This document shows, piece after piece, positions 23,973 through 63,598 of a stretch of 64,000 bases of DNA. This DNA is from Spirochaetia bacterium (lineage in GTDB: Bacteria > Spirochaetota > Spirochaetia > UBA9216), in assembly GCA_965140585.1 (NCBI GenBank), contig OZ223264.1, positions 192,001 to 256,000 on the forward strand, in the 5' to 3' direction. The notes under the pieces are model-generated. The model saw only the letters and a program-made list of their open reading frames with translations. It was not told where the DNA came from and searched no databases. A program made the translations under genes and the position numbers. Every line of letters begins with the position of its first letter. Position 1 is the first letter of the stretch.

Positions 23973-23995
23973 ATGAACAGTCTTAATTCAGTATT
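23973..23995 (+). pseudogene. ssb: 5' fragment of prophage-interrupted ssb (MNSLNSV)
   Basis: GAGGAG SD at 23963-23968, ATG AAC AGT CTT AAT TCA GTA TT joins in frame to 63176 onward. Confidence 0.88.
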
Positions 23996-24012
23996 GTTTG
24001 GAGCCTAATTCA
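23975..24012. other. attL (core GTATT 23991-23995)
   Basis: ssb 5' codons switch to phage arm GTTTGGAGCCTAATTCAT, an imperfect inverted repeat of the attR arm. Confidence 0.85.
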
Positions 24013-24059
24013 TTGATTAAATACCCTTATATAATCTATTATAGGGTAAAGGATTGGAC

Positions 24060-25604
24060 ATGGAAAGATGTGGCGTATACTGTAGAGTATCAACGGAGCT
24101 TCAGAAGGACAATTACTCAGTTGAGAGACAAAAGAGCGATGGGAAGCAGTTTTGTTTAGATAATGGCTATGAATGTGAACTTTATTTAGATGTGCAAAGT
24201 GGTAGTACAATCTCTAAAAGAAGTGAGTTCAGTCGCCTTATTCATGATATTGAAGATAAGAAGATAGATATCATCTGGGTTATTGAGTTCAGTAGGCTCA
24301 CTCGTAACGATGAAGAAGATGCACTCTTCTTAAAACGGCTATTTAACGAATACAACATTAAACTGTTTGAGAATGGTATCCAAATAAAATTTGATAGCCC
24401 AGAAGACCAACTCTTCTACAATCTTAGAAGTTCAGTCGCTGCATATGAAAGACGAAAGATAGTTGAGCGTATGACTAATGGTCAGAGAAAACGCATTGAT
24501 AATGGTGACCGAGTCCTACCAAGACTTTATGGATATGAGCGAGTTGGAGACGGTTTTAAGATAAAAGAGCAAGAAGCCGAAGTAATAAGATTTATCTTTA
24601 AATTAGCCTCAGAAGATATGACTTTCGTAACAATCCAGAGAGAGTTGCTCTTAAAGGGCTATAAGATGCGTTTTGGCAGTGTTAATTGGCAAACTGGACA
24701 TATATCAAGAATATTACGTCAAAAGGCTTATATAGGTCAAATAAAGAACTCTAAAGGTGCTTATATAGAATCTTCCATGTATGAACCCATCATTGATAAA
24801 GAAACATGGGAAAGAACACAAGCCGTATTGAGGCAAAAAACTACAATTAAAAAGAACAAGAACTATAGAGTTGGAACCTTTGAATTATCTGGTCTTCTTG
24901 TTTGTAGAGAATGTGGAACCAAGTATTTCAGGAAGGCTAACACAAATAAGGGTATTGAAAGAGGATTCTACATCCACACATTGAATAGTAATGGTGCGTT
25001 TGAGTGTAAGGAGAATCTCAAGAATACAACTGTTGACGAGATGATTTTATTGTATCTGGTCAGAGGACTCTACGCTCATAATTTCAATGATACAGAAGCT
25101 GTCCTTGGTTTTTTTGAATCAGAGATTGAACGGCTAAAACGAGAGAATGAGCTTGTTCATTCAAAAATCGAAGATTTGAACAAGAATCTCAAGAAATTGG
25201 AGAATGACAAGAAAAAGTTAGTTGATGCCGTTATTAGTGAAATTTTTACCATAGATGAGATTAAAGACAAGAAAGCTGAGATTGATAATCAAATAGGGAT
25301 AATAAAGCAGCGAATCAATGAACAGAACCTGATTATGACCTCTGAGCAAGAAATGAAAGATAAGTTAAATGAATTCGCTGTGGAAGATAACAATGCTTTT
25401 GTTGATATGTCTCAGGTTGAGAGAAAAGAGTTATATATGAAGCGTATCAAAAAAATAACCCTCTACAATAGAGAGTTAGATATTGAGTTTATAAATAATG
25501 TATCCTACCACATTCCTGATATCTATAATCTGGAAGAACCATGGAAGGGTGAGTTTGATATGGCAAAAGCCTATGCTGAGGGTAACTTTAACACTGAGGA
25601 TTAG
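24060..25604 (+). CDS. large serine recombinase (integrase)
   Basis: YCRVSTELQ catalytic Ser, SRLTR, recombinase domain (YGY), LSGLLVCRECG zinc ribbon, coiled coil. Confidence 0.95.
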   Translation: MERCGVYCRVSTELQKDNYSVERQKSDGKQFCLDNGYECELYLDVQSGSTISKRSEFSRLIHDIEDKKIDIIWVIEFSRLTRNDEEDALFLKRLFNEYNIKLFENGIQIKFDSPEDQLFYNLRSSVAAYERRKIVERMTNGQRKRIDNGDRVLPRLYGYERVGDGFKIKEQEAEVIRFIFKLASEDMTFVTIQRELLLKGYKMRFGSVNWQTGHISRILRQKAYIGQIKNSKGAYIESSMYEPIIDKETWERTQAVLRQKTTIKKNKNYRVGTFELSGLLVCRECGTKYFRKANTNKGIERGFYIHTLNSNGAFECKENLKNTTVDEMILLYLVRGLYAHNFNDTEAVLGFFESEIERLKRENELVHSKIEDLNKNLKKLENDKKKLVDAVISEIFTIDEIKDKKAEIDNQIGIIKQRINEQNLIMTSEQEMKDKLNEFAVEDNNAFVDMSQVERKELYMKRIKKITLYNRELDIEFINNVSYHIPDIYNLEEPWKGEFDMAKAYAEGNFNTED

Positions 25605-26620
25605 TTAGGTCTTTTCCTGACTGCTTCAGCGGCTTTTCTATCCTCTTCAGTTCCGGGGATATCTATCTTTGGAGCATCTTCAAGCCACATTTTGAAGAGC
25701 TGGTCTAACTGATTCTCATTGGCACAATTAGAACAGAATAATAACCCTTTAGAAGTAGGAAATAGCATACCTGAAATGAACAATTCAGGTTTGGATAACA
25801 GATACTCACCGGTTTTATCAGAATCAATAATAGTCCCATAATATCCATTTAATTGGGATTCTCGCCATTTACGCCTATCCATTATCTCTTCTAATGTAGA
25901 CTGAATACGCTTTCCACTCAACTTCCTATCAGACATTCTATTAACTATCTCATCTATAGTATCATCAAGGAGGATTTGGCCTTCTTGGGGTGAAGTCGTC
26001 TTCTTGGCTCTCGTAGGGGTAACATGTGAGGTCTGTTTTGATTGAGACATTTGACCCGTTTTGTTCTTTTTCTTGTACTCATCGAGGAGATTAGGCGGTT
26101 TCTTGCCTGATTCCTTGGCTGTCCTTCTAACTCCGTCATACAGACCATCAAAAACCTCATCTACCCACTCACCAACAGACTGCTCATTACGATTGATAAG
26201 GTTTGACTTACGCCAGCCATCTTTGAGCAGATTTTGTGTCTTATTCAGAAAGTGTGCTGCAAATATCCTTCTGTTCATTTCATTCTGCTCAGTATCAACA
26301 AGAAGCAATCCATTTGGAAAGAAGTCAAAGATACGAGCCTGCATCTCGTCCTTGTTCAAATAGTAATCATACAAATCAGATATCAAATCAGAAAGCATAT
26401 TATGCTGGTCCTGAAATACCTTGTCAGGAGTATCAGGATAGGCTTTCTGGAGGGATATAAGCGCCAATTTGGTAAAGAACTCCCATATTAGGTCCACATT
26501 TTCAGAGGTTCCGTCAAAGTAATCTTTGAATGTATTCCATATCTCATAGTGGTTATTAACTATGAAAGTCTTGATTTTGTAGATTCTCTCTGCTGTGTTC
26601 ATGTGTATATATTGCTTCAT
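25601..26620 (-). CDS. phage hypothetical protein with weak sigma70 region-2-like segment
   Basis: 339-aa ORF; SDLISDLY...FAAHFLNKTQNLLKDGWRK recalls sigma region 2; sits where a repressor usually lies. Confidence 0.55.
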   Translation of the reverse strand: MKQYIHMNTAERIYKIKTFIVNNHYEIWNTFKDYFDGTSENVDLIWEFFTKLALISLQKAYPDTPDKVFQDQHNMLSDLISDLYDYYLNKDEMQARIFDFFPNGLLLVDTEQNEMNRRIFAAHFLNKTQNLLKDGWRKSNLINRNEQSVGEWVDEVFDGLYDGVRRTAKESGKKPPNLLDEYKKKNKTGQMSQSKQTSHVTPTRAKKTTSPQEGQILLDDTIDEIVNRMSDRKLSGKRIQSTLEEIMDRRKWRESQLNGYYGTIIDSDKTGEYLLSKPELFISGMLFPTSKGLLFCSNCANENQLDQLFKMWLEDAPKIDIPGTEEDRKAAEAVRKRPN

Positions 26621-26777
26621 GAAAAAAAGTATAAAAAATTCAAAAAACTTTTACAAGTTTGATTTTCCCGTGCGTGTATTTATATGAATCACTTAAAGAT
26701 TCAAATCCACAAAACACATTTCGGACTTCTCGCGAGTTAAAGGTGGCCATCGAGTCCTCCCATTTGGAGGAACAGAG

Positions 26778-27218
26778 ATGAACGAAATCATGCCTGTAAA
26801 AATCAATACAAACCCGAATCTCAAAAACTGGGATTACCGCAAATCAGTTACCACAGTTAAATCAACTGTAATCAACTGGAAGAAAGCCAGTACGGAACTG
26901 CTCGACGAGCTGTTCAAAGCACGAATGGCACTTTCTAAAGTGGGCAATCCGTTCCAACTCACCGAAGACGGGGTTGAGAAAAAGAAAACATGGAACGACT
27001 ACTGTGTCGAAATCGGGCTTAACCGCAGAACAGTTAATCGCTGGATCGATAGATATCTCAATCCTGAGAGAGACGTTGAAACTCCGGTGAAGGAGAAAAT
27101 CCTTACACATAACATACTCGTTCAGTCAGTAAAGAAACAGAAAGATGGTTCTTACGCTATCAGATTTGTTTGTCCTGAATGTGAGCAGATTCATACCATG
27201 GAGGTCGAAATTGACTAA
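26778..27218 (+). CDS. phage HTH DNA-binding protein (DUF3102-like)
   Basis: TWNDYCVEIGLNRRTVNRWI helix-turn-helix; C-terminal CPEC; GGAGG SD. Confidence 0.65.
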   Translation: MNEIMPVKINTNPNLKNWDYRKSVTTVKSTVINWKKASTELLDELFKARMALSKVGNPFQLTEDGVEKKKTWNDYCVEIGLNRRTVNRWIDRYLNPERDVETPVKEKILTHNILVQSVKKQKDGSYAIRFVCPECEQIHTMEVEID

Positions 27219-28077
27219 TACAGTAATATCAACATTCGCAGGGGGAGGAGGCTCCTCCCTTGGTTACAAGATGGCCGGTTTTAAAGAACTCTTGGCAATC
27301 GACTTTGAAAAGAATGCAGTGGACACACTGAAAGCAAATTACGACTTTCCTGTTTGGCAGAGAGATATTTCTACAGTTACACCTGAAGAGATATTCAAAG
27401 CCACAGGTATTAAAAAAGGAGAACTCGATGTTCTCGATGGTTCACCTCCATGTCAGGGATTCAGTTTGGCCAATACCAAACGTGTTGTCGGTGATGAGCG
27501 GAATGACCTTGTATACGAGTTCATAAGACTTATTAAAGGTCTTGAACCAAAGACTTTCGTAATCGAGAACGTTGCGGGAATGGTGACTGGCAAAATGGCA
27601 CCTACTTTCTATCGTATCGTTCAGACTCTTAAATCTCTGAATTACAGAGTAGAAGCCAAACTCATGAACGCCATGTATTACGGTGTTCCTCAGAGTAGAC
27701 AGAGGGTCATTATAATCGGGGTTCGTAAGGACCTCAAAAAAATACCTTCATTCCCAAAGGCTTCATCAAAAAATCTGGTTACTCTTTCTGAAGCACTACC
27801 CCATATTGACGGTTATATCGAAGCTCAGTTTGAAAGAGCACATATTCCTGGAACTAAACCTGTCGGAACAATAACTAAAACCACAGGCATGATGTTCATC
27901 AAAAACAATAAAAAGGTCAGACCTGATATTGATGATGTCAAAGTTCTCTGTTCATTCCCCCGTGACTACATTCTGACTGGTGGTTATACAGCACAGTGGG
28001 CACGACTCGGGAATGCTGTCTGCCCCGCAATGATGAAGGCGATAGCAACGAATATTAAGCGGAATATTCTTAATTGA
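27211..28077 (+). CDS. orphan DNA (cytosine-5) methyltransferase
   Basis: STFAGGGG (I), GSPPCQGFS (IV), IENVAG (VI), QSRQR (VIII), RLGNAVCP (X); TTG start with GGAGG SD. Confidence 0.93.
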   Translation: MTNTVISTFAGGGGSSLGYKMAGFKELLAIDFEKNAVDTLKANYDFPVWQRDISTVTPEEIFKATGIKKGELDVLDGSPPCQGFSLANTKRVVGDERNDLVYEFIRLIKGLEPKTFVIENVAGMVTGKMAPTFYRIVQTLKSLNYRVEAKLMNAMYYGVPQSRQRVIIIGVRKDLKKIPSFPKASSKNLVTLSEALPHIDGYIEAQFERAHIPGTKPVGTITKTTGMMFIKNNKKVRPDIDDVKVLCSFPRDYILTGGYTAQWARLGNAVCPAMMKAIATNIKRNILN

Positions 28078-28552
28078 CATATTCCCATCGATACCCACCT
28101 GCATTTGGTCTTCTGCCTCTGCAAACTGAGCAGATATGACCTTTCTGTGCACCGCTGACAGAGGCAGCCATTTCTATTGATTCATAGATTTGGTCTGTCT
28201 CAATGCATCTAACTTTCCGTTTAAAAGGTGTGATTAAGTCAGTTTCATAAGCATGAATAGTATTATGACTATTCGTACACCATTCGAGATTCTCAACATT
28301 ATTATTTCCTTTATCACCATCAATGTGATTTACAACAGGAAAGTTGAGAGGATTTGGAAGAAAAGCCGAAGCAACAATGCGATGAACATAAAACCCTTTA
28401 CGTTTACCTTCATTCGATAAACTTACGGATTTATATTTATCCTTTCTAATTTTCGGCTTTAACCATCCTTTGCTTTTAAATGACCAAATACGACCATCTC
28501 TTGTAACAGCATAAGATGGAAAATCATTAACAAATCTAATTTCGGTAATCAT
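28070..28552 (-). CDS. NUMOD4/HNH homing endonuclease with NUMOD1-like tail
   Basis: YAVTRDGRIWS, VHRIVASAF, VNHIDGDKGNNNVENLEWCT, AGGYRWEY. Confidence 0.9.
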   Translation of the reverse strand: MITEIRFVNDFPSYAVTRDGRIWSFKSKGWLKPKIRKDKYKSVSLSNEGKRKGFYVHRIVASAFLPNPLNFPVVNHIDGDKGNNNVENLEWCTNSHNTIHAYETDLITPFKRKVRCIETDQIYESIEMAASVSGAQKGHICSVCRGRRPNAGGYRWEYVN

Positions 28553-28626
28553 AATGCCCCCTTTGTAGATAAATATGCAAAAAAAGGGGGGTGAAACTGA
28601 GACATTTGACTCAATAAGGAGAACAT

Positions 28627-29745
28627 ATGAAATACACTAACCGATTCGGAGAAATCCAAGTAAAGAAAAGTTTTGCAGCACCGATGCTGACTTCTCAGTA
28701 CACTATCTGTCCCATCCCTTTTAAGTTTGACCCTTACAAAGGGTGTGCATACAATTGCAAATACTGTTTTGCCAAGGACATTGTCGAGTTTGCCAGAAGA
28801 CGTTCTGACAATAAAACCTTCCAGTACATCTATGGTAATAGACCTGACCAGCTTAGAGCATGGATTCAGAATGCAATCGAATCTTCTTACGATTATGAAC
28901 GAGGGGCTGAGGTTGCAATCAAAGAAAGAATCCCTGTCAAAGTTGGTGCCACTTCAGACCCATTCCCTACTATAGAGAGAGATGCTCATATCACTTATGA
29001 CGCATTGAAAGTATTCGACATGTTTGACTACCCAATTGAGATTCAAACCAAGAACCCTGCAATACTCGCCGAGTATGCTGATGAGTTTGATAATCCCAAT
29101 TGGACAGTTGCGGTTTCTCTTATCTCTACTGATGAAAAGTATCTCAAAGCTACAGAGCCAGGTGCACCAACGGCAAAACAGAGATTGGATGCAATAAAGA
29201 AACTCACTGATATGGGAATCAAAGTTATGGGTAAGATTCAGCCTGCTATCTTTCCCAAGATTCTCGATGACTTACCTTCTCTGGTTAGTGCATTCAAAGA
29301 TGCTGGTTGCTGGTCATTCAATATTGAAGGACTCAGAGTATCGAGAGCTATGACACCTCAGCAGAAAGCTCAGTACGATTCCATTAGTGATTATCTTGGT
29401 TTTGATGTCGTTGAATATTATAAAAACGAAGATTTGATGGGAGAGTATGTTCTTGGTTATGACAAGAAAATGCAGTACGTCAGACTTTCTGAACAGTTGG
29501 CTGCAAAACATGGTCTCAGGTTTTTTGTCGCAGATAATGGCATGGGTTGTATGGGATGTTCTGGTGAGTGTTGTGGAACTGAGGTTCTTCGGGATTATCA
29601 GATAATGGGATACAACGATAGGTCTCTCTCATTTCCTACTGAGTCAAATGTCTCAGTAGAGATGCAGAATGTAAAAGCTAATTTCAGTAGGAACAAATCA
29701 AAACAGCACATGACTATCAGAGAGGTAGTCGATTCTCTAATGTAA
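28627..29745 (+). CDS. radical SAM protein, spore-photoproduct-lyase-like
   Basis: DPYKGCAYNCKYC (CxxxCxxC), ATSDPF, IQTKNP, EPGAPT..RL; C-terminal CMGC..CCG. Confidence 0.88.
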   Translation: MKYTNRFGEIQVKKSFAAPMLTSQYTICPIPFKFDPYKGCAYNCKYCFAKDIVEFARRRSDNKTFQYIYGNRPDQLRAWIQNAIESSYDYERGAEVAIKERIPVKVGATSDPFPTIERDAHITYDALKVFDMFDYPIEIQTKNPAILAEYADEFDNPNWTVAVSLISTDEKYLKATEPGAPTAKQRLDAIKKLTDMGIKVMGKIQPAIFPKILDDLPSLVSAFKDAGCWSFNIEGLRVSRAMTPQQKAQYDSISDYLGFDVVEYYKNEDLMGEYVLGYDKKMQYVRLSEQLAAKHGLRFFVADNGMGCMGCSGECCGTEVLRDYQIMGYNDRSLSFPTESNVSVEMQNVKANFSRNKSKQHMTIREVVDSLM

Positions 29746-30426: not shown

Positions 30427-30948
30427 ATGGAAAGAAAAGACCTTCTCAGAATATTAAAAGACATTAACAGCTATGGGATTGATTTCTATCTCAGTGGCAA
30501 GATGGTTAAACTGCCACCAGAGGTGGTGGTCAGTGGAGCCATACTTAATGGCTTGAATCTATTCAATAACGATGTTGAATATTTGAAATCATTATCAACT
30601 ATAGATTACCTCAAATCAGAATATTGGAGAGAGCTATCAATCAGGAAACTTGAAAGAGACCCCAAGTGCCAAGGCTGTGGGAATAAGGCAATAAAGGTTT
30701 ATAAAACTGAATGGCTTACCAAAGGTGAAGAGACCTTGGATGATGTAGTTTCTCTATGTTCAAAATGTAAGGTAATAGACGGTGAGGTTGTTTCTCACAA
30801 GCAGATAAAGCAGGAGATTAGAGACGCTATCAGGCAATCACCTGAATTTAAAGAGATGCTTCAAAAGGAAGTTGAAGAAAAAATTATTAAAACTACCAAG
30901 GACTACTTGGAAGGTAGGAACAGTAGAGAAGTAAAGGAGATATTATGA
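30427..30948 (+). CDS. phage protein with degenerate HNH/Zn-finger domain
   Basis: YLKSEYWREL..RDPKCQGCG...VVSLCSKC; HNH histidines absent. Confidence 0.6.
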   Translation: MERKDLLRILKDINSYGIDFYLSGKMVKLPPEVVVSGAILNGLNLFNNDVEYLKSLSTIDYLKSEYWRELSIRKLERDPKCQGCGNKAIKVYKTEWLTKGEETLDDVVSLCSKCKVIDGEVVSHKQIKQEIRDAIRQSPEFKEMLQKEVEEKIIKTTKDYLEGRNSREVKEIL

Positions 30949-31772
30949 AAGAATTTAAATACTATGGAGAATTATTAAAAAAGACAAATGGGTATAAGAA
31001 ACGGACCACAGAGAATGGTGATTTCTTTGCAGCCGTACCATTGGAAATATTTGATTATGATTTGAATCTTACAGAGACAAGAGTCTATATGTACTTATTA
31101 CAAGCTTCCTCTGAAAAAGGATATTGTTGGCCAAGACAAAGCTTGATAGCTGAGAAGACTGATAGAACAAGGTCTACTGTATCAAGAGCTTTAAGGTCAT
31201 TGGAAAGAAAAGGGTTGCTTGCAATACACACAATAAGAAAAGAGAATAACATGGAGCATAATGTATACCTACCTAAGCTTGGTATTTTTTTCTCAACCAA
31301 TATGACTAAAAAGTCATCAGAGCCTTCCGTAGACGACACACGGGCTGAGCAAGAAAGTTCTGGTAGCATTCCCAAAACAGCACAGTATAAGTATTATCTA
31401 AAAGGATTATCTAAAATTATTAATAATAATGGTATCAATAATGAATTTACTAAATCTACAGGGAACACTACATTTAATACTACTAATAAATTTATAGAAT
31501 TCTATAATATTGAATATCAGAAGCATCTTGGTTCAGAGCATTATGTAGATAATAAGCTTATTCAAAAAGTTAATAAATTAGAGCCTGATAAAATTAAATT
31601 TATTCAAGATAATATTGCTGAATGGTTCAGGTTTATAAAATATACAGACAACCAGTTTATTCAGAATTCTAATAAAAGCCTGCACGTTTTACTTGAGCCA
31701 TCTGTTTATATGCTGTTCTACCAATATGCCAATAGGCCAGGTAAGCCCAAATCAGTTTGGGAGCTTGATTAA
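30945..31772 (+). CDS. phage replication initiator with winged HTH
   Basis: VYMYL..CWPRQSLIAEKTDRTRSTVSRALRSLERKGL (HTH_36-like), N/T-rich linker. Confidence 0.8.
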   Translation: MKEFKYYGELLKKTNGYKKRTTENGDFFAAVPLEIFDYDLNLTETRVYMYLLQASSEKGYCWPRQSLIAEKTDRTRSTVSRALRSLERKGLLAIHTIRKENNMEHNVYLPKLGIFFSTNMTKKSSEPSVDDTRAEQESSGSIPKTAQYKYYLKGLSKIINNNGINNEFTKSTGNTTFNTTNKFIEFYNIEYQKHLGSEHYVDNKLIQKVNKLEPDKIKFIQDNIAEWFRFIKYTDNQFIQNSNKSLHVLLEPSVYMLFYQYANRPGKPKSVWELD

Positions 31773-35045: not shown

Positions 35046-35525
35046 ATGGGACGTAGACGAAAACCTGTTGAGGTGATGAAAAAGAAAGGAACATATAAAA
35101 AGCACCGACATGAAAAGTTCCAAGGTCAGCTTAAAGTTCCTGTCGTTGAAAATGTTCCAAGACCAATAATGCCGCTTAATCAATACGGTTTGTATGAATA
35201 TTACAGGTTGTGCAGAGAACTAAAAGAACTTGAGATTCTGGGTGACATTGATTTGTCGCTTGTAGAGATGGCTGCAAATTATTATGGAACGTATGTTGAG
35301 AATTTTAATTACATCATTAACAACTACGGTTCTGTATCAAAATATCTTGTCAATAAAACAAACAATACAGCAATGATTTATACGAGTATGAACAACGCAT
35401 TCAAATCCTATGTAGATGTAGGGTCCCGGTTCGGTATTACACCGACTGCGAGATTGAATCTGCCAAACAAGAATGATGGAGGTGGTGAAGATGAGTTTTC
35501 AAAATTCTTAAATGAGGTTTCATGA
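35046..35525 (+). CDS. terminase small subunit (P27 family)
   Basis: MGRRRKP..KGT, RFGITPTARLNL. Confidence 0.9.
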   Translation: MGRRRKPVEVMKKKGTYKKHRHEKFQGQLKVPVVENVPRPIMPLNQYGLYEYYRLCRELKELEILGDIDLSLVEMAANYYGTYVENFNYIINNYGSVSKYLVNKTNNTAMIYTSMNNAFKSYVDVGSRFGITPTARLNLPNKNDGGGEDEFSKFLNEVS

Positions 35526-37171
35526 GAGTTGATGATTTAAAAAAGTATTGTAACCATGTAATAGCAGATAACAAAAACTATTGTAAAAACTACCAATTAG
35601 CCTGTAAGCGTTTTTTAAAAGATGTTGAATCAGATAATCAATACTACTTTGATGAGTCTGAATCAGAGAAGTTGTTTCTATTCATTCAGAATCTTAAACA
35701 GTTTGAAGATGTCTTTTTTGATAAACCACTCATATTAGAAGATTGGGAAAAGTTCATCCTTGCTCAAATCTATTGTTGGAAAAAGAAATCGGATAACAAG
35801 AGACGTATAAAAAGAATCTATATCCAAGTTGCCAGAAAGAACGGAAAGACAATTTTAATGTCAGTGATTGCTCTATATTCATTGATTGTTGGTAAGTCTG
35901 AAGAGATTTATTCTCTGGCCTCCAAGAAAGACCAGGCTAAGATTGTATATGACAAGATGTGTGGAATCATCAGGCAAACGGGTCTTGAAAAGTATTACAA
36001 AATCTTTCGTGGTGAGATAAGAAACAAGAGCAACAAGTATGTGTATGTTTCTGCTGACCACAAACTTCAAGACGGAACAAACCCCTCGATTGTTATTGCT
36101 GATGAGTATCATGCCCACCCGACAGATGAACTTCTTAATGTTTATACATCAGGTATGGGAGCACGTTCAGAACCTCTTGTTCTAATCATTACAACTGCCG
36201 GTTTCAATTTGGATGGACCATGTTATGAAGAATATGAGAGAGCAGAGAAAATCTTAAATGGTATTTATGAAGATGAATCATATCTGCCAATAATATTTGA
36301 GCTTGATGAATCAGACAGTTGGGAAGATGAGTGTGTATACAAGAAAGCAAATCCAAACCTTAATGTCAGTGTCGGTCTTGAGTATCTACAGGGACAGAAG
36401 CTTGAAGCTCAACAACGCCCGTCTAAGCGTAGAGACTTTCTAACCAAGAATCTGAATATCTGGGTTGATGGTGCTGAGAGTTGGATTGATTTACAGACAT
36501 GGAGAAAGAATAAAGAGTTTTTTGATGTTAATGAGCTTGAAGGTAGAGATTGTTTCGCTGGTTTAGACTTATCAGCAGTGTCAGACTTAACTGCATATTC
36601 ATTATACTTTCCACCAGATGATAAAGATGAAAAAGTAAAAGTTCTTCATAAATGCTACATACCAGAATCTTCCATAGACAAGAAAGAGAAATTTGAATCA
36701 ATAAAATTCAGAGAGTGGATAGACCAAGGTTATGTTACTCCAACGCCAGGTGAAGTAGTTGATTATTCATATCTTGTTGATGACCTACTTTCAGATGCCA
36801 AACTGTACAACATAAAAGAGATTGCCTTTGACTCTTACCTTTCCAAGAACATTATAAAACCAATCGAAGATGAGCTTGGTGAAGATGTAATGATTGAAAT
36901 GAGACAGGGTTTAATTAACTTCTCTCCATGGACCAAGGAATGGGAGAAAGATGTTTTAGCAAATCGAATAATTGATTTCAATCCTGTTATGGAATGGTGT
37001 ATCTCAAACACTGTTATCAAGACAGACCAGAATGGAAACTATAAACCACTCAAAGAGAAGCCGAATAAAAAGATTGACCTTGTAATCTCATCAATTATGG
37101 CACATGCCAGAATGACCGCCGTTGATAGAGAGGAATTTCGTTCCATCTTTGAAGTGCTGATGTCTGAATAA
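35522..37171 (+). CDS. terminase large subunit
   Basis: VARKNGKT, IADEYHAH, IITTAG, GLDLSAVSDL, KIDLVIS. Confidence 0.96.
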   Translation: MRVDDLKKYCNHVIADNKNYCKNYQLACKRFLKDVESDNQYYFDESESEKLFLFIQNLKQFEDVFFDKPLILEDWEKFILAQIYCWKKKSDNKRRIKRIYIQVARKNGKTILMSVIALYSLIVGKSEEIYSLASKKDQAKIVYDKMCGIIRQTGLEKYYKIFRGEIRNKSNKYVYVSADHKLQDGTNPSIVIADEYHAHPTDELLNVYTSGMGARSEPLVLIITTAGFNLDGPCYEEYERAEKILNGIYEDESYLPIIFELDESDSWEDECVYKKANPNLNVSVGLEYLQGQKLEAQQRPSKRRDFLTKNLNIWVDGAESWIDLQTWRKNKEFFDVNELEGRDCFAGLDLSAVSDLTAYSLYFPPDDKDEKVKVLHKCYIPESSIDKKEKFESIKFREWIDQGYVTPTPGEVVDYSYLVDDLLSDAKLYNIKEIAFDSYLSKNIIKPIEDELGEDVMIEMRQGLINFSPWTKEWEKDVLANRIIDFNPVMEWCISNTVIKTDQNGNYKPLKEKPNKKIDLVISSIMAHARMTAVDREEFRSIFEVLMSE

Positions 37172-43398: not shown

Positions 43399-43443
43399 TT
43401 CAAATCATAAAAAGCCTGTGTGGCCGCAATCTTTATCTTATGT

Positions 43444-50089: not shown

Positions 50090-50478
50090 TGGAAGAGGAG
50101 AGAAGAAAAGACAGAATTGATTTTCAAACTTATATGGAGGTTTTGGTGAGCAACGTAAAAGAAACTGTCAAAATAGAACTGACCTCTGTAAAGCAGGAAA
50201 TCAAGAACTTGGAAGAGAAGGTAATTACTCGCATTGACCTTCATGAAAAAGAAAGCGGTAACAAGATAACAAACATTGAAGAAGAGTTGGACTGTCTTAA
50301 AACCAAGGTCTCAAGTATTGAAAACAGAGTTGAAGCTTTGGAGTTGAAACCTATCAAGGATAATTCTGAGACAATAGAAAAGTTTAAATCAACATTCAAA
50401 AAGATTCTGTATACCACATTAGCAGGAGGGATAATCACTTTTATTTTGTATTTAATAAAAATGTTTTTAGGTGTTTAA
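50086..50478 (+). CDS. coiled-coil protein with C-terminal TM (holin/XhlA-like)
   Basis: heptad repeats and one C-terminal TM at start of lysis region. Confidence 0.55.
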   Translation: MMEEERRKDRIDFQTYMEVLVSNVKETVKIELTSVKQEIKNLEEKVITRIDLHEKESGNKITNIEEELDCLKTKVSSIENRVEALELKPIKDNSETIEKFKSTFKKILYTTLAGGIITFILYLIKMFLGV

Positions 50479-51544: not shown

Positions 51545-51988
51545 TTAGGGTATCTCGATTGATGTTGAAGAACTTTTTATCCAATTGTCAAGTTGCTCGA
51601 TTACTGATTTAATTTCAGAGGGTTTTTTCTTCTTGATTGCACATTCCCATATTATTGCTATCCGCCAGCCTTTACTTTTTAAATTCCGAATATTTGTACT
51701 ATCTCTTTCTACATTCTCTTGTAATTTTTTTTGCCAAAATTCTGTTCTGGTTTTTGGTAGTACAAAAAGAGGGCAGTTGTGCATATGCCAAAAGCAACCG
51801 TGAACAAAAATGACTACTTTATGTTTGGTTAATACAATATCAGGTTTACCGGGTAATTTTTTTGAATGTAGAGAATATCGATATCCAGAAGCAAATAAAC
51901 CTTTTCGAATTACAAGTTCAGGTTTTGTATTTTTAGCTTTAATACCACTCATCATTTTTGAACGAGTGGCAGGCGATACAATATCCAT
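51545..51988 (-). CDS. vsr: very short patch repair endonuclease
   Basis: RSKMMSGIKAKNTKPE, LPGKPD, FVHGCFWH, IWEC. Confidence 0.96.
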   Translation of the reverse strand: MDIVSPATRSKMMSGIKAKNTKPELVIRKGLFASGYRYSLHSKKLPGKPDIVLTKHKVVIFVHGCFWHMHNCPLFVLPKTRTEFWQKKLQENVERDSTNIRNLKSKGWRIAIIWECAIKKKKPSEIKSVIEQLDNWIKSSSTSIEIP

Positions 51989-53235
51989 TATTTTACAAGC
52001 ACTAAATCTTCATGCTTTTTCATTGCATTGATAACAATCGGTTTAATAACTTTAGCAACTTCAGAAAAAACAGGGACAACTACACTATTACCAAATTGCT
52101 TATATGCTCTAGTGTCGGAAACCGGAATGTCGAAACTGTCATCAAACCCCATTAATCTGGCACATTCTCTGGGCGTTAGCCGTCTTGGGTTTTTGTTTTT
52201 TTGGTGAACTAAAATTTCTGAACCATCTTTATAATATCTGGCAGATAGAGTTCTGGAAACGTCGTTTTCTTTAACAAGGCCAAATCCAAATCCATTTCCT
52301 TTTGCTCTATGTTTCTCGGCATAGTTTTGTAAATAAGCCCAAAGTTTATCTGTTAAAGTATATTTGTCATGTACCTTGTTATTTTTATGGTCAAAATATT
52401 TATCCTTATCATGTTCAAGGAAAAGTTCAGAACCATCTGTTTTGTGAAGGATGCTACCAATCTTAACTTGCCCTTTTGGTGGATAGTTTAACATATCCCA
52501 GTCAAACTCAGCTTCATTTTTGAATCCAACAATAATTATTCTTTCTCTATGTTGTGGTACCCAATGTTGTCCATCTATTATGTGGGGATAGACATTGTAT
52601 TCTAATTCTTCTCGAAGTGTTCGCATAATTACTTTAAAGGTGTTCCCTTTATCATGTGATTTTAGATTCTTCACATTTTCAAGAACGAAAGCTTCTGGTC
52701 TTTTAGCATCGATTATTCGAGCTACATCGAAGAAAAGAGTTCCTTGTGTTTCATCTTCGAAACCATGCAATCTTCCAAGAGATATTTTTTTTGACACTCC
52801 AGCTATTGAGAATGGCTGGCAAGGGAATCCTGCCAATAATACATTGTGGTCTGGAATCTCTGACACCTCAACTTTTGTTATGTCTCCGTTTAAGAGTTCA
52901 CCATCTCTATAATTTGCAGCATAGGTTTTCTGAGCATATGAATCCCATTCAGAAGTAAAGACACATTCACCACCAGCTTTTTCAAAGGCATTTCTAATCC
53001 CGCCAATTCCTGCAAATAAATCTATAAATTTGAATTCACCATTAGTCTTTTTACCGATAGTTTGTGCTGAAATCAATTTCTGTAATCTATCAACAACATA
53101 ATCTTTTGGTTCAGATTCATTTTTTAACCAACGTGTGACTGTACTTACATTTACATCAAGTTCGTCAGCAATCTCTCGTTTAGTATAATAATTTAATGCA
53201 TTAGACAGATAATCGATAGTTTTGACTGTGCTCAT
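51988..53235 (-). CDS. dcm: Dcm/M.EcoRII-like C5 methyltransferase with N-terminal HTH
   Basis: DLFAGIGG, AGFPCQPFS, LENVKNL, PQHRER, RTLSARYYKDGSEIL, QFGNSVV. Confidence 0.93.
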   Translation of the reverse strand: MSTVKTIDYLSNALNYYTKREIADELDVNVSTVTRWLKNESEPKDYVVDRLQKLISAQTIGKKTNGEFKFIDLFAGIGGIRNAFEKAGGECVFTSEWDSYAQKTYAANYRDGELLNGDITKVEVSEIPDHNVLLAGFPCQPFSIAGVSKKISLGRLHGFEDETQGTLFFDVARIIDAKRPEAFVLENVKNLKSHDKGNTFKVIMRTLREELEYNVYPHIIDGQHWVPQHRERIIIVGFKNEAEFDWDMLNYPPKGQVKIGSILHKTDGSELFLEHDKDKYFDHKNNKVHDKYTLTDKLWAYLQNYAEKHRAKGNGFGFGLVKENDVSRTLSARYYKDGSEILVHQKNKNPRRLTPRECARLMGFDDSFDIPVSDTRAYKQFGNSVVVPVFSEVAKVIKPIVINAMKKHEDLVLVK

Positions 53236-53355
53236 GAAATCCCCTCCCTGGGAACATATATTGCATTATGCACTATTTATTCCCAGATGAACAGGTTTAT
53301 TTTGAGTTAATTCCTCAGAAATGTCAATTATTATAAAGATTATATATGAATGGAC

Positions 53356-54546
53356 TTATTTCTGCTTTCTATCCCTTAATCTTTCTGTTCTTGAATATAG
53401 TTGAATGAGTTTTTCTTCTTTAACCCTAAAGCAGGTTCCATGATTTCGTTTAGTATGCATCCTAATTTCCATCATAACATCTCCTGATTCAATAAGCTGG
53501 ATAAACTCCTTTATTGAGGGGCCTGAATAATAGGTTAGCTCTACATAATGAAATTCTTCATTCTTATCTTTACCTCTATTTTCGGCACCGATATACGCAC
53601 TTTCTGTAAGCTTTTCATTTAGTCTAAATTGAATGGTCGTAAAATCATATTTTCCTATAGGAGTGTTATTAAAACATAGATATACGTTTTCAGTTTCATT
53701 ATCTACAGAAAGACTTAGATTGTGGGTATTAATGTTAATGGTCGGTGTTGAATACAACGCTTGACGTTGGTTTTCAGCATCAAAATAACCATACCTCTCA
53801 AGTCTCTCATTTTGATTTTTGGAGCCATCAATCCATTCCGGTTCTTTGAGAAATAAATTCATTTTTTCTTTAGATTGATTTTGTTTTAACCTGAAGCATT
53901 TCAGCTCAATACCCTTGAAGTCTGGTCCTGAAGAATTATTCTCTTCTATACCCATTAAAGATTCAAATGTGTATCCTACTCCTGTACTTCCAGAACGAAG
54001 TGTTTTGACATAACCCATTTCTTTAATTTTATCAAATTCCTCTAACAGTATATCGATGCCATTATTTCGCTGTACTGGTTGAATTGATAAGTGCCAATCT
54101 AAATCTAAAAAGAAAGAACCTTGTAAATTTGATAAATTTAGTTCAGAAAGTAATTCGGAATAGTAGATATGGTCAGGCTCAAGAATATGGATTTCATAAG
54201 TTCTTTTATAATCTTTTCTTCTTCCTACAATTATAAGAGTATGTTCAGGTACAGAATTGACTGATGTCTTTAGGCGCGTTATTCGTCTCTCAGGATACCG
54301 ATGGTAATGTTTATAATTACCATCCTTAACTTCAATTGTTCCTGTGTCATTCCAAAGATAGCTAATTTGTTCTGTATAATTTATTGATACATTCGGGATA
54401 AAGTTGGTAATTGCAGGAAAAAGTCTATATGCTTCAACCGGGATAAGAACGCCATGTCTACCAGAATCATCATTTTTAGTTAATATCTTACAGAGGATAC
54501 CATCTACATTTTCATAATTGATAAGAATTTTTGATAATACAGACAT
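53356..54546 (-). CDS. MvaI/BcnI-family restriction endonuclease with EcoRII-N-like N-terminus
   Basis: GVGYTFESLMGIEENN..PDFKGIELK, RNHGTCFR; KILTKNDDSGRHGVLIP. Confidence 0.85.
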   Translation of the reverse strand: MSVLSKILINYENVDGILCKILTKNDDSGRHGVLIPVEAYRLFPAITNFIPNVSINYTEQISYLWNDTGTIEVKDGNYKHYHRYPERRITRLKTSVNSVPEHTLIIVGRRKDYKRTYEIHILEPDHIYYSELLSELNLSNLQGSFFLDLDWHLSIQPVQRNNGIDILLEEFDKIKEMGYVKTLRSGSTGVGYTFESLMGIEENNSSGPDFKGIELKCFRLKQNQSKEKMNLFLKEPEWIDGSKNQNERLERYGYFDAENQRQALYSTPTININTHNLSLSVDNETENVYLCFNNTPIGKYDFTTIQFRLNEKLTESAYIGAENRGKDKNEEFHYVELTYYSGPSIKEFIQLIESGDVMMEIRMHTKRNHGTCFRVKEEKLIQLYSRTERLRDRKQK

Positions 54547-57030: not shown

Positions 57031-57851
57031 ATGAAAAAAATTCCGATAAACGATCAAATTGCGTATTCTATTTCGAACTTAGTTGATGACTCTCAAGTAG
57101 GACGTAGAGACCCAAGCCATTATGAAATAGAAACGTTGATTAACGAGTGCGCATTATCAAAATATGATCCAAACCAAATCGGGAAAGGCCCTGTTGGGAA
57201 GATGAAACGTATTCGTCATGTACTAATAGGTTCATTAGAAGAAGAAACAGAAAAAGCCGAGGCTTTTGCTTATGGAATTATAAGCTTAATACGTTCTTCT
57301 GGTGGATTCCGAGAATTATCTCCCAATTTTATTGGATGGGAGAATATCCATAATTTGCAAACGGTTTTAAAAGATGAAGGTATTTTGTTGGGTGATGATG
57401 GTACCTTAAGTTATAAGATTTTAGATGATTTATCAAATTCAGAGAAGACCGATGTTTTATATTCATATATTAAAAGAGCCAGGAAAGGTAGTGAAGATGC
57501 TGCTCTGATTGTGGGAACTAGTAAAGATTTGATTGAAGCAGTATCAGCTCATGTGATTTTTTAAAATGTGGAACATATCCTACAACTGCAAATTTCCCAA
57601 CATTACTGGGACAGGCATTTGTTATGTTGGGCATGGCTACCTCTTATGATGAGGAAAAGAAAGATGAACATCCAAGAAAAACGATTGAACGAAACATGTA
57701 TGATTTAGCTTGTTCTATTAATAAATTACGGAATAAACAAGGAACTGGTCACGGTAGACCTTTTCTTCCAGATTTGTCAAAGACAGAGGCTATTGAAGCT
57801 GTACAAGTTATGGGGATTATTGCAGAGAAGATGTTAAATTGTTTGAGTTGA
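57031..57851 (+). pseudogene. Abi_C-domain abortive infection protein split by a frameshift at T6
   Basis: GTSKDLIEA..HV | YP..ANFPTLLGQAF ... INKLRNKQGTGHGR; frames join with one extra nt at 57557-57562. Confidence 0.78.
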
Positions 57852-61023: not shown

Positions 61024-61115
61024 ATTAAACCTTAGGTAACCCGGAATAACGTGAATTGGGACAGGTGACTCAGTTGAAAATGTTGATGTGCAGTAATCGA
61101 GTTTGTGATATTGTT
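61024..61115 (+). repeat. 92-bp cargo leader, copy A
   Basis: 61051-61115 identical to 61622-61686; contains TGGGACAGGTGACTCA. Confidence 0.92.
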
Positions 61116-61121
61116 TTCGTT

Positions 61122-61517
61122 ATGCAAAAAGTGTTAAAGAGGTTAATCCCTTTACTTATAATGCTAATCTTCTTATTTGTTGGATGTGAAAAAGTTGAAC
61201 ATTTTGAAATTTCTGATGTGATTATCTTAACGACATCTGATAATGCACCAATAATGTTTAATTATATAATAGATTATAAAGTTTATGGGTATAACGAGCG
61301 TGAGAGAATTAATAAGCTTGAATGGAAAATTGAATCACTAATTATTCCCGAATTTGTTGATTTTATAAATGAGCAAGTATCGGGATTTTCTAAATCTGAA
61401 ATGATTACTAGTAATAAGATCCTGAATGGCATGAATACAAAAGTTGAAAGTCATTTAAATAAAATAGCGTCTGAATATCATTTCAGGGTTAAAAAAGTTA
61501 CTATAACTGTAAAGTAA
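61122..61517 (+). CDS. cargo lipoprotein (SPFH-like)
   Basis: lipobox LFVGC; TSDNAPIMFNYIIDYKV. Confidence 0.65.
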   Translation: MQKVLKRLIPLLIMLIFLFVGCEKVEHFEISDVIILTTSDNAPIMFNYIIDYKVYGYNERERINKLEWKIESLIIPEFVDFINEQVSGFSKSEMITSNKILNGMNTKVESHLNKIASEYHFRVKKVTITVK

Positions 61518-61594
61518 AAAATTTATTGAATTCTGTTTTAATTTGATATAGGGAAACAATTTATACGTGCTCATAAATTTCGTCCCCTAACCGG

Positions 61595-61686
61595 ATTAAA
61601 CCTTAGGCAACCTGGAACTGTGTGAATTGGGACAGGTGACTCAGTTGAAAATGTTGATGTGCAGTAATCGAGTTTGTGATATTGTT
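61595..61686 (+). repeat. 92-bp cargo leader, copy B
   Basis: direct repeat of 61024-61115. Confidence 0.92.
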
Positions 61687-61865
61687 GATTGATAGAGGAT
61701 TGAAAGTGTTAAAAAGAGGTTTCGTATTTTTAATCTGTTATTATATTAATAAACTCCATAATTTTGTTTTTAGGATTAATGGAGATGAATTAGAAGTAAT
61801 ATCCCCAACTATGATAATGTTACGATTTAAAAATTTAAGAATGATAGAAAGTGAAGAGGACGTAG

Positions 61866-62627
61866 ATGCAACTGAGTCAATCTCAAGGGCAATATTACTA
61901 CAATGCCAGATGGTATGACCCAAGCATAGGCCGAATCACCACCGAAGACCCCATGCGTGACGGCCTAAACTGGTACGCTTATGCTAATAATAATCCGTTG
62001 AAGTTTGTTGACCCGAGCGGGTTGGCTAACTTGACATCATATACACCTGATAATCCCTATTACTATTATAGCTCCTCAAAAGTGACTGATACGGTTATTA
62101 AATCATTATCGCTTATTCCTTATATAGGTGTAGGTGCAGGAATTGCAGAGTCCATCTCAAACAAATTTGGTTTATTTGAGATTATTGATTTAAATAAACA
62201 AAGCCAAATTGATAAAGCCTCTGGAGGATTATCGTCTGCTGGAACTGTAGCAGGAATTATGAATAAATTGGGGGAAGGTTTTTTTAGTAATGGTTTTTCA
62301 AAAGTTTTAGGCGTTTTATCCACAATCGGAACAATAGTGGGACTTGCAGATTATGCTAATAGTTTCTTATCAGAACCCTCATTAGAAACGGAGAAAGCAG
62401 TAGATGCCTCAGGGGTCGTTCAGGGGAAACATTTAGACACATTAATCCCATTTGCAAAAGAAGTAGAAGAATTAATGTCTGGATATTTAGATAGTGGCGA
62501 TGTTGAAATAATTGAACGAGATGATGGTACTGACACATTGCAATGGAATTCGCAGGCATCTAAAGATGCATTCAATTCAGTTGTAGAAGATTATCAACGA
62601 AATGAAGTGGAAAGAACCGATGAATAA
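61866..62627 (+). CDS. orphan Rhs repeat-associated core fragment + C-terminal toxin domain
   Basis: YYYNARWYDPSIGRITTEDP..DGLNWYAYANNNPLKFVDPSG. Confidence 0.88.
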   Translation: MQLSQSQGQYYYNARWYDPSIGRITTEDPMRDGLNWYAYANNNPLKFVDPSGLANLTSYTPDNPYYYYSSSKVTDTVIKSLSLIPYIGVGAGIAESISNKFGLFEIIDLNKQSQIDKASGGLSSAGTVAGIMNKLGEGFFSNGFSKVLGVLSTIGTIVGLADYANSFLSEPSLETEKAVDASGVVQGKHLDTLIPFAKEVEELMSGYLDSGDVEIIERDDGTDTLQWNSQASKDAFNSVVEDYQRNEVERTDE

Positions 62628-62793
62628 TATAATTATTCTATTTACAGTATTAGCTGTATTATTCTCTAATTTTAGTATTTGGTTATATTCGAAACAAGCA
62701 AAATTTTCGAAGATTATTAAGATTATTTTGTTTATAGTAGCAGATGGTATTTGGGCTACTTTGTTTGTAATAAAGATAATAGAAATTTTATAA
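62620..62793 (+). CDS. putative membrane immunity protein
   Basis: 57 aa, two TM, overlaps toxin stop. Confidence 0.6.
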   Translation: MNNIIILFTVLAVLFSNFSIWLYSKQAKFSKIIKIILFIVADGIWATLFVIKIIEIL

Positions 62794-62931
62794 TTCTATA
62801 TAAAGACGTTTTAAACAATTATATATGATTCCATTGGAAGTAGTCCCGGAGAACCCGGACTACTCAACAGAGTCTATTCCGATAAATAGAGTTTGTTCGA
62901 AATTTCGGAAATGATTCATCGTCCTACCAAT

Positions 62932-63040
62932 TTCGTCTAACGCGCGTTAGACGAACCCTTTAGGGCGGTGAGGGGAACTGCAGAAGCTCCGCTTCCGTCG
63001 GCAGATTTTGTAACAACGGGCTGTTGTACGAAGTCTGCCG
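62932..63040. repeat. palindrome/hairpin cluster with attC-like core sites
   Basis: perfect 24-bp TTCGTCTAACGCGCGTTAGACGAA and bulged hairpin CGGCAGA...TCTGCCG. Confidence 0.6.
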
Positions 63041-63152
63041 GTTAACTATATAAACCACCTTACAGTTTTAAGAATATTACACAATCCATTCCCCTCTAAC
63101 GGATTAAACTTCAGACAAACAATAGTGTACTGAAATACCCATATATAATATT

Positions 63153-63195
63153 ATGAAATAAGAGTTCCAATTAATGTATTAATTGAGGGAAACCT
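63153..63195. other. attR (core GTATT 63176-63180)
   Basis: phage arm ATGAAATAAGAGTTCCAATTAAT then GTATT then ssb codons. Confidence 0.85.
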
Positions 63196-63598
63196 GGTCA
63201 GAGATCCGGTTTTAAATGAAACCCCAAAGGGGACTAAAATATGCAATTTCACAATTGCAACCAACAGATACTTTAAGCAGGATGAGGAATATCAAAAAGA
63301 AGTTTCCTTCATCGATGTGGAAGCCTGGTCCAGACTTGGGGTTGTTTGTGATAATGGACTTCAAAAGGGACAGGGGGCCAGAGTTGTAGGTCGTCTGAAA
63401 CAGGACAGGTGGAATGATAAGGAGGGCGCTTTTAAATCAAGACTGAAGATTGTTGCTGAACATGTGGAATTTAAGCCTGTATTCTCGAAGGAAGAGGCCC
63501 AGGCTCGTCAGGAGGCTGAGCAGGTAGATCTATCCCAGGAGGCCGTTGCGAATGTCGTAACGCCGGAACTGGACCCTGTCGCGGATTCAGTGATTTAA
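63176..63598 (+). pseudogene. ssb: 3' part of prophage-interrupted single-stranded DNA-binding protein
   Basis: VLIEGNLVRDP..TPKGTKICNFTIATNR..FIDVEAW..KGQGARVVGRLKQDRW; reconstituted gene 146 aa. Confidence 0.93.

Follow-up and report, generated by a model that had tools for sequence, protein, structure and literature searches.

A probable temperate phage with its own large serine integrase interrupts a stand-alone ssb gene in an uncultured Spirochaetia bacterium

Introduction

Large serine integrases insert phage DNA without cofactors and excise it only with a directionality factor. Their att sites are short, and attB and attP are identical over a few base pairs around a central dinucleotide that is not palindromic and has imperfect inverted repeats on both sides. 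Towards the C terminus, the enzymes have a zinc-ribbon domain in which a coiled coil is embedded. The primary ssb gene of many bacteria usually lies in an rpsF-ssb-rpsR operon, and the acidic tip of SSB, canonically D-D-I-P-F in E. coli, ends in a hydrophobic residue or Phe.

Genes of the ssb family have been described as phage integration sites. In Streptococcus mitis B6, phiB6 is reported to disrupt ssbB close to the 5' end (PMC2828477), and pneumococcal prophages are described as using attB(ssbB) (bioRxiv 10.1101/2024.08.13.607808; review PMC12378983). A 'chromosomal curing' argument has been put forward in this literature for prophages that occupy ssbB and comYC of streptococci. The initial annotation of the locus studied here had presented the targeting of ssb as new, an idea that these reports of insertion near the ssbB 5' end in S. 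mitis and S. pneumoniae had anticipated. We describe the interrupted ssb gene within a 64-kb window, which is the whole stretch of DNA analysed and to which all positions refer.

Results

The insertion lies inside codons 7-8 of a stand-alone ssb gene, and the following features define it.

23996-63180, unstranded: prophage, 39,185 bp with one core copy, delimited by the empty site in a relative (L001), a G+C drop and phage genes
23991-23995, unstranded: attL core GTATT, the left boundary
63176-63180, unstranded: attR core GTATT, the right boundary
23973-24008, + strand: ssb 5' stub, in which six codons of the host gene are followed by the core and then by sequence of the phage
63176-63598, + strand: ssb 3' part, codons 7-146 and the stop codon
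24060-25604, + strand: large serine integrase (int), 514 aa, with Pfam, phrog_95 and PDB relatives
24019-24042, + strand: direct repeat, right copy, containing TATAAT, upstream of int
63133-63154, + strand: direct repeat, left copy, followed by AAGAG (63160-63164) and an in-frame ATT (63170)

The stub frame starts at the ATG at 23973 and reads MNSLNSVLFGA before a stop at 24006-24008; immediately 5' of it is the native SD sequence GAGGAG, which is also found 5' of the intact ssb of L001. The frame from 63176 reads VLIEGNLVRDP... and remains open until the stop at 63596-63598, and this 140-aa piece matches Pfam SSB (PF00436) from profile position 4 (E 5.6e-26, 91.1 bits). A scripted join of 23973-23995 with 63181-63598 gave 441 nt, with 146 codons and one terminal stop. 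Removal of the insert through the core is thus predicted to restore a 146-aa SSB and to rebuild the gene exactly. An independent database protein of 146 aa (P0001), which starts MNSLNSVLIEGN, is identical to the rebuilt SSB at 144 of 146 positions, differing at positions 113 and 116, and has the same N-terminus as had been predicted. The split at codons 7-8 with exact rebuilding upon excision, as proposed in the initial annotation, was therefore borne out, and every coordinate given there holds.

The comparison with a prophage-free relative that had been proposed gave the same picture. Locus L001, from a Spirochaetia MAG (CAXXYH010000004.1), aligns to window positions 14013-23998 (89.5%) and 63169-64000 (91.0%) and to nothing between; its ilvE-ssb-TPR locus is uninterrupted, and its intact ssb product differs from the rebuilt SSB at four of 146 positions. 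The split gene likewise has ilvE upstream and a TPR gene downstream, and ilvE is divergent and upstream of ssb in all of L001-L004. Close relatives thus carry the allele without interruption and, at the syntenic position, a site that is empty. The G+C content was 0.33-0.41 in 2-kb windows wholly inside the insert (24001-63000) and 0.42-0.47 in those wholly in host DNA (1-24000).

The integrase contains the motif YCRVSTELQ, in which Ser11, judged by its position, would be the nucleophile. Pfam Resolvase (PF00239) matched residues 6-150 with 92.2 bits (cut-off 23.3), and Recombinase (PF07508) matched residues 170-259, after the catalytic domain, with 54.9 bits (cut-off 21.1). Zn_ribbon_recom (PF13408) scored 22.6 bits, under its cut-off of 25.3; the translation shows a CxxC and a long charged stretch of heptad-like character, and residues 136-481 align with the C-terminal domain of the A118 integrase (PDB 4kis, E 1.2e-11). 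The protein also matched phrog_95 (integrase, 1.7e-85) and the structure of SprA (YokA) (PDB 9dxh, E 2.4e-12). A Pfam scan of the 46 + 20 ORFs of the insert found no second recombinase. The two domains, the Ser11 motif and the phage genes listed below agree with the earlier reading of a serine-integrase prophage. The integrase had also been called new, and its closest match in a 5.8-billion-protein collection is indeed no more than 48% identical; in a phage collection, the best-covering matches were the integrases of A118 and U153 (ca. 24-25% identity).

The other recognisable phage genes are as follows.

30945-31772, + strand: replication initiator or DnaD-like helicase loader (Pfam HTH_36 and DnaD_N; PHROG replication initiation families)
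35046-35525, + strand: terminase small subunit (near full-length Pfam match)
35522-37171, + strand: terminase large subunit (near full-length Pfam match; Terminase_4, TerL_ATPase, TerL_nuclease and phrog_83 are cited for the terminase pair)
37232-38461, + strand: portal (near full-length Pfam match)
38458-39180, + strand: S78 prohead protease (near full-length Pfam match)
39202-40356, + strand: HK97-type major capsid protein (near full-length Pfam match)
40399-40908, + strand: head-tail adaptor (Pfam, PHROGs)
41820-42806, + strand: tail tube (near full-length Pfam match)
43420-45573, + strand: tape measure (Pfam, PHROGs)
45573-49127, + strand: putative tail-end protein of 1184 aa, belonging to no family, with a role suggested by position only
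51545-54546, - strand: cargo, comprising a Vsr nicking endonuclease, a C5 cytosine methyltransferase and an MvaI/BcnI-family restriction enzyme

Searches of the insert with Pfam and PHROGs found no tail sheath protein, and Pfam, PHROGs and NCBIfam gave no recognisable repressor, excisionase or directionality factor. The gene set suggests a temperate tailed phage that is apparently complete in its head, tail and packaging functions. The capsid protein was found once only, on the window's own 946-kb contig, the next match being 37% identical, and no free or circular copy of the phage is known. This singleton status in the protein collection is what might be expected of an assembly chimera, or of a genomic island that is not viral. 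However, the two junctions share one 5-bp core, placed exactly where a known protein is restored, the integrase gene lies 65 bp from attL, the packaging, head and tail module is complete, and the capsid record comes from a contig as long as 946 kb, so that such an origin is extremely improbable. We consider it very probable that a temperate tailed phage with an HK97-type capsid integrated into the stand-alone ssb of an uncultured Spirochaetia bacterium by means of its own large serine integrase.

Since GTATT is the sole block identical between the two junctions (5 bp), the crossover must, on sequence comparison, lie inside it. The most likely candidate for the crossover dinucleotide is GT (23991-23992 and 63176-63177), which gave a four-way half-site similarity of 34/72 as compared to 21-27/72 for TA, AT and TT. 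The initial annotation had described attP as an imperfect inverted repeat centred on GT. This held only in part: in attP, 10 of 22 arm positions pair about GT, nine of them among the inner 12, with the neighbouring TG tying at 10/22; the rebuilt attB, however, had its best dyad about the core TT (12/22) and paired at only 5/22 about GT. Because attB is most symmetric about TT and its left half-site fits poorly to the other three half-sites, GT can be regarded only as a candidate crossover position. As is established for large serine integrases, dimers of the enzyme would engage attP and attB, cleave both at the central dinucleotide (most likely GT) with a 2-bp stagger, rotate and religate, and the reverse reaction between attL and attR would need a phage directionality factor.

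The OB-fold ssDNA-binding domain of the target SSB scores above the curated cut-offs of PF00436 and TIGR00621; with the latter (cut-off 53.95), P0001 scored 90.7 bits and the 140-aa piece 84.5 bits, and no species-level equivalog SSB model passed. The family is found across Spirochaetota and is well conserved. In all 80 best related genome loci, a six-codon leader, [M/V/L]-N-x-L-N-S, precedes the matched part. None of the best 80 loci from related species is interrupted, and thus insertion in this ssb is not a common state. The window SSB ends in DSVI. An acidic stretch with Phe forms the tip in 52 of the 80 orthologues (VF 23, PF 14), and the VI ending is seen in four, L001-L004 only, which makes the tail look more like an altered form of the canonical tip than like its loss. 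The initial annotation had taken the lack of DDIPF as a sign of a probable secondary SSB, a reading that these orthologues do not support. A flanking ORF of rpsF or rpsR size was present at none of the 80 loci, where the flanking ORF was the longest within 400 bp on each side, judged by size alone (no ORF was selected upstream in five loci or downstream in one), and this absence does not show the ssb to be secondary. There is no other SSB domain within the 64-kb window.

A direct repeat of 22-24 nt flanks the attP core, with 15 of 16 positions matching, a value reached by 0 of 500 shuffles. The right copy may be the int promoter or operator, since it contains TATAAT and sits upstream of int. 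Upstream of int and at attR alike, the repeat, a purine run and a start-like codon follow one another at parallel distances. In the frame of the ssb 3' part, no ATG, GTG or TTG occurs between the stop at 63146-63148 and the GTG at 63317, and no terminator-like site was found in 23700-24300.

Discussion

Integration would leave the promoter and ribosome-binding site of ssb in front of an 11-codon stub, with reading continuing into int. Since the 3' part has no ordinary start codon, the split gene would most likely be switched off, in which case the cell would either have another SSB or tolerate the loss. If the split SSB were the sole SSB of the cell, this reading could not be right; the widespread, conserved nature of the family and its mostly canonical-like tip were counted against it for that case.

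Re-wiring of ssb would explain how the cell tolerates insertion into a conserved SSB. The promoter-like repeat at attR, the weak SD AAGAG and the ATT at 63170 would then yield a slightly shorter SSB under phage control; such a protein would begin INVLIEGNL. The occurrence of the TATAAT repeat at equal distance upstream of int and of the ATT, together with the parallel spacing, is consistent with this. However, the promoter scan gave no call at the attR repeat, and the ATT sits in the attP half-site of the integrase and so may serve DNA recognition alone. Moreover, the full leader is kept in every one of the 80 orthologues, so that shortening of the N-terminus does not occur among the natural variants. 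In E. coli, ATT serves very poorly as a start codon. We regard re-wiring as quite unlikely, and give as little credence to its fuller form, in which the cell has the split gene as its main, or its only, canonical SSB and the attR repeat, ribosome-binding site and AUU start keep the lysogen alive. If this form were true, SSB supply would be under phage control during residence and return to the host upon excision.

Under the preferred reading of a gene switched off by integration, the simplest explanation for the choice of target is that ssb offers a conserved site for landing and that the cell tolerates losing it. It is possible that weakened ssDNA handling by the host benefits the phage, as argued for streptococcal ssbB prophages. 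Specifically, if the SSB handles imported or recombining ssDNA, its knockout might lower the chance that homologous recombination deletes the prophage. The insertion of phiB6 near the ssbB 5' end (PMC2828477), the anti-transformation reasoning given for the S. pneumoniae ssbB attB (bioRxiv 10.1101/2024.08.13.607808; PMC12378983) and the position of the present insertion, also at the 5' end and leaving no ordinary start codon, argue for it. Nothing, however, shows a role of the target SSB in DNA uptake, the window contains no competence gene, and the best 80 related loci are free of insertions. To our knowledge, it has not been established that this spirochaete group undergoes natural transformation. 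This explanation is accordingly a doubtful one; it concerns the reason for using the site and is compatible with phage integration as described above.

Active lysogeny, in which the prophage would leave without lysis when SSB is needed and later re-insert, had been inferred in the initial annotation. Both structural prerequisites, an interrupted ORF and scar-free restoration, are present at the sequence level, occupied and empty alleles exist at ca. 99% protein identity, and the top integrases of the phage collection belong to the comK-targeting Listeria A118 group, albeit at ca. 24-25% identity. No feature of the sequence separates a switch from an ordinary lysogen, however, or points to regulated, non-lytic excision; the phage appears complete rather than domesticated, and non-lysogens explain the empty alleles equally well. 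Kwun et al. argue, in the work as cited, that prophages in competence genes avoid transient excision. Such a switch is quite unlikely, and the mechanism as it stands is textbook serine-integrase lysogeny.

The locus adds an integrase/attP/attB set with precise boundaries from Spirochaetota, in which very few phages have been characterised and genetic tools are few. It also raises the question of whether this spirochaete has a second SSB; if it has none, the case becomes much more interesting.

Among known systems, the Anabaena fdxN-element XisF and staphylococcal CcrB belong to the same superfamily, and their NCBIfam models gave nearly full-length matches. The scores lie far under the curated cut-offs (96.7 vs 375 for XisF and 102.4 vs 900 for CcrB), and assignment of the integrase as an equivalog of either was rejected. 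As in Bacillus subtilis SPbeta (SprA/SprB, in spsM) and the related gene-intervening elements skin, gin (gerE) and yin (yabG), a serine integrase would rebuild a split host gene. In those elements, however, excision is described as tied to sporulation via a host-controlled directionality factor (PMC5499854, PMC5595907, PMC10747680), and neither an SPbeta-like directionality factor nor a sporulation-type programme is visible in the spirochaete prophage. Listeria A118 and phi10403S in comK share with it a large serine integrase, a position inside a coding region and restoration of the gene by excision (predicted in the present case), but the target gene differs and the A118 integrase is only ca. 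24-25% identical; regulated non-lytic excision is reported for Listeria (PMC7397523) and not for the spirochaete prophage. The closest likeness in target is to phiB6 and the pneumococcal prophages, temperate phages in the 5' end of an ssb-family gene with a short common core and attP beside the integrase gene, as described in PMC2828477 and bioRxiv 10.1101/2024.08.13.607808. These are likened by target and not by integrase, and their hosts are Bacillota as opposed to Spirochaetota. The reported streptococcal core is 9 bp as compared to 5 bp here, and the streptococcal target is a known competence-specific paralogue, whereas no such role is assigned to the spirochaete SSB. The present case shows that phages have independently adopted genes of the ssb family as landing sites in two distant phyla, in keeping with the idea of a preference of mobile elements for genes of ssDNA handling.

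Junctions of the prophage and the rebuilt ssb

The initial annotation held that a prophage splits an ssb gene with exact boundaries, and this was borne out by the two parts of the gene, each of which meets the phage DNA at a copy of GTATT.

23973 (start codon) to 24006-24008 (stop): ssb 5' stub, six native codons followed by GTATT (23991-23995) and then phage DNA, reading MNSLNSVLFGA
63176-63180 (GTATT), open frame to 63596-63598: ssb 3' part, beginning VLIEGNLVRDP

The 140-aa 3' piece matched the Pfam SSB profile from profile position 4 (E 5.6e-26) and scored 84.5 bits against TIGR00621 (cut-off 53.95). When the halves were fused by a script via a single copy of the core, a frame of 441 nt was obtained with 146 codons and one terminal stop, and the insert measured 39,185 bp. 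The G+C content of 2-kb windows was 0.33-0.41 wholly inside the insert versus 0.42-0.47 wholly within host DNA.

Comparison with prophage-free relatives agreed with the predicted rebuilt protein. A protein-collection search with the 140-aa piece found P0001, an intact 146-aa SSB from an independent source, which starts MNSLNSVLIEGN and differs from the rebuilt SSB at 2 of 146 residues (positions 113 and 116). A scan of genomes, one per species, yielded an empty site in a Spirochaetia metagenome-assembled genome (L001, CAXXYH010000004.1), which aligned to 14013-23998 of the window at 89.5% and to 63169-64000 at 91.0%; these alignments meet and share 15 bases. Its ssb is uninterrupted, with 4/146 differences from the rebuilt SSB. 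In the window, as in the four loci of its clade (L001-L004), a branched-chain aminotransferase gene lies upstream of ssb in divergent orientation. The insertion in ssb is more than chance.

The target ssb family

Locus counts refer to the best 80 of 557 confirmed relatives. The six-residue leader was kept in all of these 80 loci and none of them carried an interrupted ssb; rarer interrupted loci may exist beyond the best 80 of 557. Mean column identity of the SSB family was 58% over 26 sequences. No flanking ORF of rpsF or rpsR size, judged by size only, was seen on either side of ssb in the best 80 loci when the longest ORF within 400 bp was taken (missing upstream in five loci and downstream in one), and ssb is a stand-alone gene in all of them. 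A literature search on the context of spirochaete ssb returned nothing usable.

The initial annotation had read the missing DDIPF tail as a mark of a secondary SSB. This argument is weak: in 52 of the best 80 orthologues the protein closes with an acidic run and a Phe (VF in 23, PF in 14). The SSB of the window's clade ends in VI, which, judged from the sequences, looks like a variant tip rather than a lost one. An SSB HMM gave 81 matches, one per source (the window and the best 80 loci), and no further SSB domain was found in the 64-kb window or in those loci. Besides, no phage-encoded SSB substitute was detected by Pfam, PHROGs or NCBIfam. The insertion would gain greatly in interest only if no other SSB proved to be encoded in the genome.

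Integrase and attachment sites

The integrase gene lies next to the ssb 5' stub.

24060-25604: int, 514 aa, with a resolvase catalytic domain, a recombinase domain, a sub-threshold zinc-ribbon match and the motif YCRVSTELQ

A search of solved structures gave alignments of the protein with SPbeta SprA and with the A118 integrase C-terminal domain. Its nearest relatives were four proteins (P0121-P0124) at 43-48% identity, all others being at or below 31%, so that the integrase is new, as had been proposed; the best-covering matches among phages were the integrases of Listeria A118 and U153 (ca. 24-25% identity). A scan of 66 insert ORFs gave no second recombinase. Mechanistically, this is serine-integrase lysogeny of the ordinary kind; the active-lysogeny switch proposed by the initial annotation is a speculative reading.

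GTATT is the sole block identical at both junctions, and the 2-bp crossover must therefore fall inside it. On general grounds, TA and AT are unlikely crossover dinucleotides because they are palindromic. When the four half-sites were compared, a GT centre gave 34/72 identities versus 21-27 for other centres, and a CCAA..AAT motif stood beside the centre in three of the four. The initial annotation described the rebuilt attP as an imperfect inverted repeat centred on GT; pairing at 10 of 22 arm positions about GT fits this description only in part, and the rebuilt attB has its highest symmetry about TT (12/22). Since the half-sites favour GT but the attB symmetry favours TT, GT is our best guess for the crossover dinucleotide and not a result.

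The 42-bp attB was matched at 41 positions in L001 and at no more than 34 in the others of the best 80 loci. At ssb codon 7, the putative crossover position, GT (Val) occurs in seven and AT (Ile) in 71 of the best 80 loci. If GT is indeed the crossover, the usable host range would be narrow, and since GT is found in just these seven loci, whether the site is open to lysogeny in a given host may hinge on a conservative Val/Ile difference in SSB.

Predicted state of ssb in the lysogen

In the lysogen, an 11-codon stub would now be expressed from the ssb promoter and the GAGGAG ribosome-binding site. No terminator-like site was seen between this stub and int, 51 bp downstream, and host transcription probably feeds the integrase gene. 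On the other side, the ssb 3' part contains no in-frame ATG, GTG or TTG between a stop at 63146-63148 and GTG 63317, and a start at this GTG would yield a 93-aa fragment in which the OB fold has lost its first third.

A direct repeat accompanies the two ends of the prophage.

63133-63154 and 24019-24042, same orientation: direct repeat AAATACCC with one variable base, TATATAA..., containing TATAAT

The copies lie ca. 21-23 bp from the core, one on each side of attP, and match at 15 of 16 positions, a value reached in none of 500 shuffles; the repeat may be a promoter or an operator that has been duplicated. Downstream of the right copy (24019-24042) come a purine run and the ATG of int; downstream of the left copy (63133-63154) come AAGAG and, at 63170, an ATT in frame with the ssb remnant. 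The repeat, the AAGAG and this ATT are the basis for an alternative in which the ssb remnant is expressed from the attR end under phage control, a reading of low probability.

A G+C-richer stretch (62830-63080, plus strand) lies between the last phage ORF and attR and folds into at least five strong hairpins (RNA MFE -91.9 kcal/mol; z -5.9 on the plus strand and -3.9 on the minus strand). It matched no Rfam family at the gathering threshold or at E <= 1, contained no tRNA or tmRNA, and had no match in the phage collection.

Gene content and relatives of the prophage

Pfam and PHROGs identified TerS, TerL, portal, S78 prohead protease, HK97-type capsid, head-tail adaptor, tail tube and tape measure genes in the insert, with the packaging, head and tail genes in the usual order and matches near full length in Pfam for TerL, portal, protease, capsid and tail tube. 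No tail sheath protein was seen by these searches. The insert further encodes a DnaD-like replication initiator and several HNH endonucleases; ESM Atlas look-ups placed two unexplained replication-module ORFs in unnamed clusters only, and scans of the small insert ORFs gave no repressor or directionality factor. A second C5 methyltransferase within 27145-29745, whose Pfam match spans only profile positions 2-208 of 324, abuts an opposite-strand HNH/NUMOD endonuclease and a radical SAM gene, the latter bracketed by a 21-nt inverted repeat (95%; 28596-28616 and 29637-29657). At 50086-50944 (plus strand), an XhlA-like ORF (31.3 bits, below the cut-off of 34.7) precedes another that matches DUF261 weakly (E 0.004), and the pair may form a lysis cassette; the insert as a whole showed no recognisable endolysin family.

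The right 12 kb of the prophage is cargo.

51545-54546, minus strand: restriction-modification cargo, an MvaI/BcnI-family restriction enzyme, its C5 methyltransferase (type II) and a Vsr mismatch endonuclease
57624-57851, plus strand: 75-aa ORF with an Abi_C abortive-infection C-terminal domain (E 1e-11)

A defence-system scan of the right-arm ORFs gave no matches beyond the restriction-modification genes and Vsr. The Abi_C ORF is preceded by a 177-aa ORF without a family. Further right, copies of a 92-nt direct repeat (61024-61115 and 61595-61686; 93% identical) stand ahead of two ORFs. At 61866-62627, an ORF opens with the end of an RHS core, ca. 50 residues up to ...DPSGL (TIGR03696, 57.5 bits), continues into a C-terminal domain of no known kind, and is overlapped by a 63-aa hydrophobic ORF (62602-62793). 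The 64-kb window contains no full-length RHS gene, and the arrangement in 61024-62793 resembles orphan toxin/immunity cassettes.

In the GenBank phage collection, the closest matches were 37% for TerL (Geobacillus phages) and 32% for the capsid. A collection of 5.8 billion proteins returned only the window's own copy of the capsid (on a 946,203-bp contig), the next match being at 37%. By these sequence comparisons, the prophage is without a close relative.

Comparison with known systems

There are well-documented cases of serine-integrase elements that interrupt host genes and restore them: comK with A118-like phages (PMC7397523), and likewise spsM with SPbeta and the gerE and yabG elements (PMC5499854, PMC5595907, PMC10747680). 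For the TG1 integrase, the role of directionality factor is taken by a protein that resembles SSB (PMC11795197); no connection with the prophage described here is apparent. As for the target, the Streptococcus mitis phage phiB6 disrupts ssbB near its 5' end (PMC2828477). For pneumococcus, Kwun et al. include an ssbB attB in their list of prophage sites that inhibit transformation (bioRxiv 10.1101/2024.08.13.607808), and a 2025 review tabulates phiB6 together with the pneumococcal ssbB prophage sites (PMC12378983). The idea of ssb as a novel prophage target is thus not upheld; with ssb-family insertions in print, the target class is not new. The novelty lies in the phylum, the integrase and the phage.
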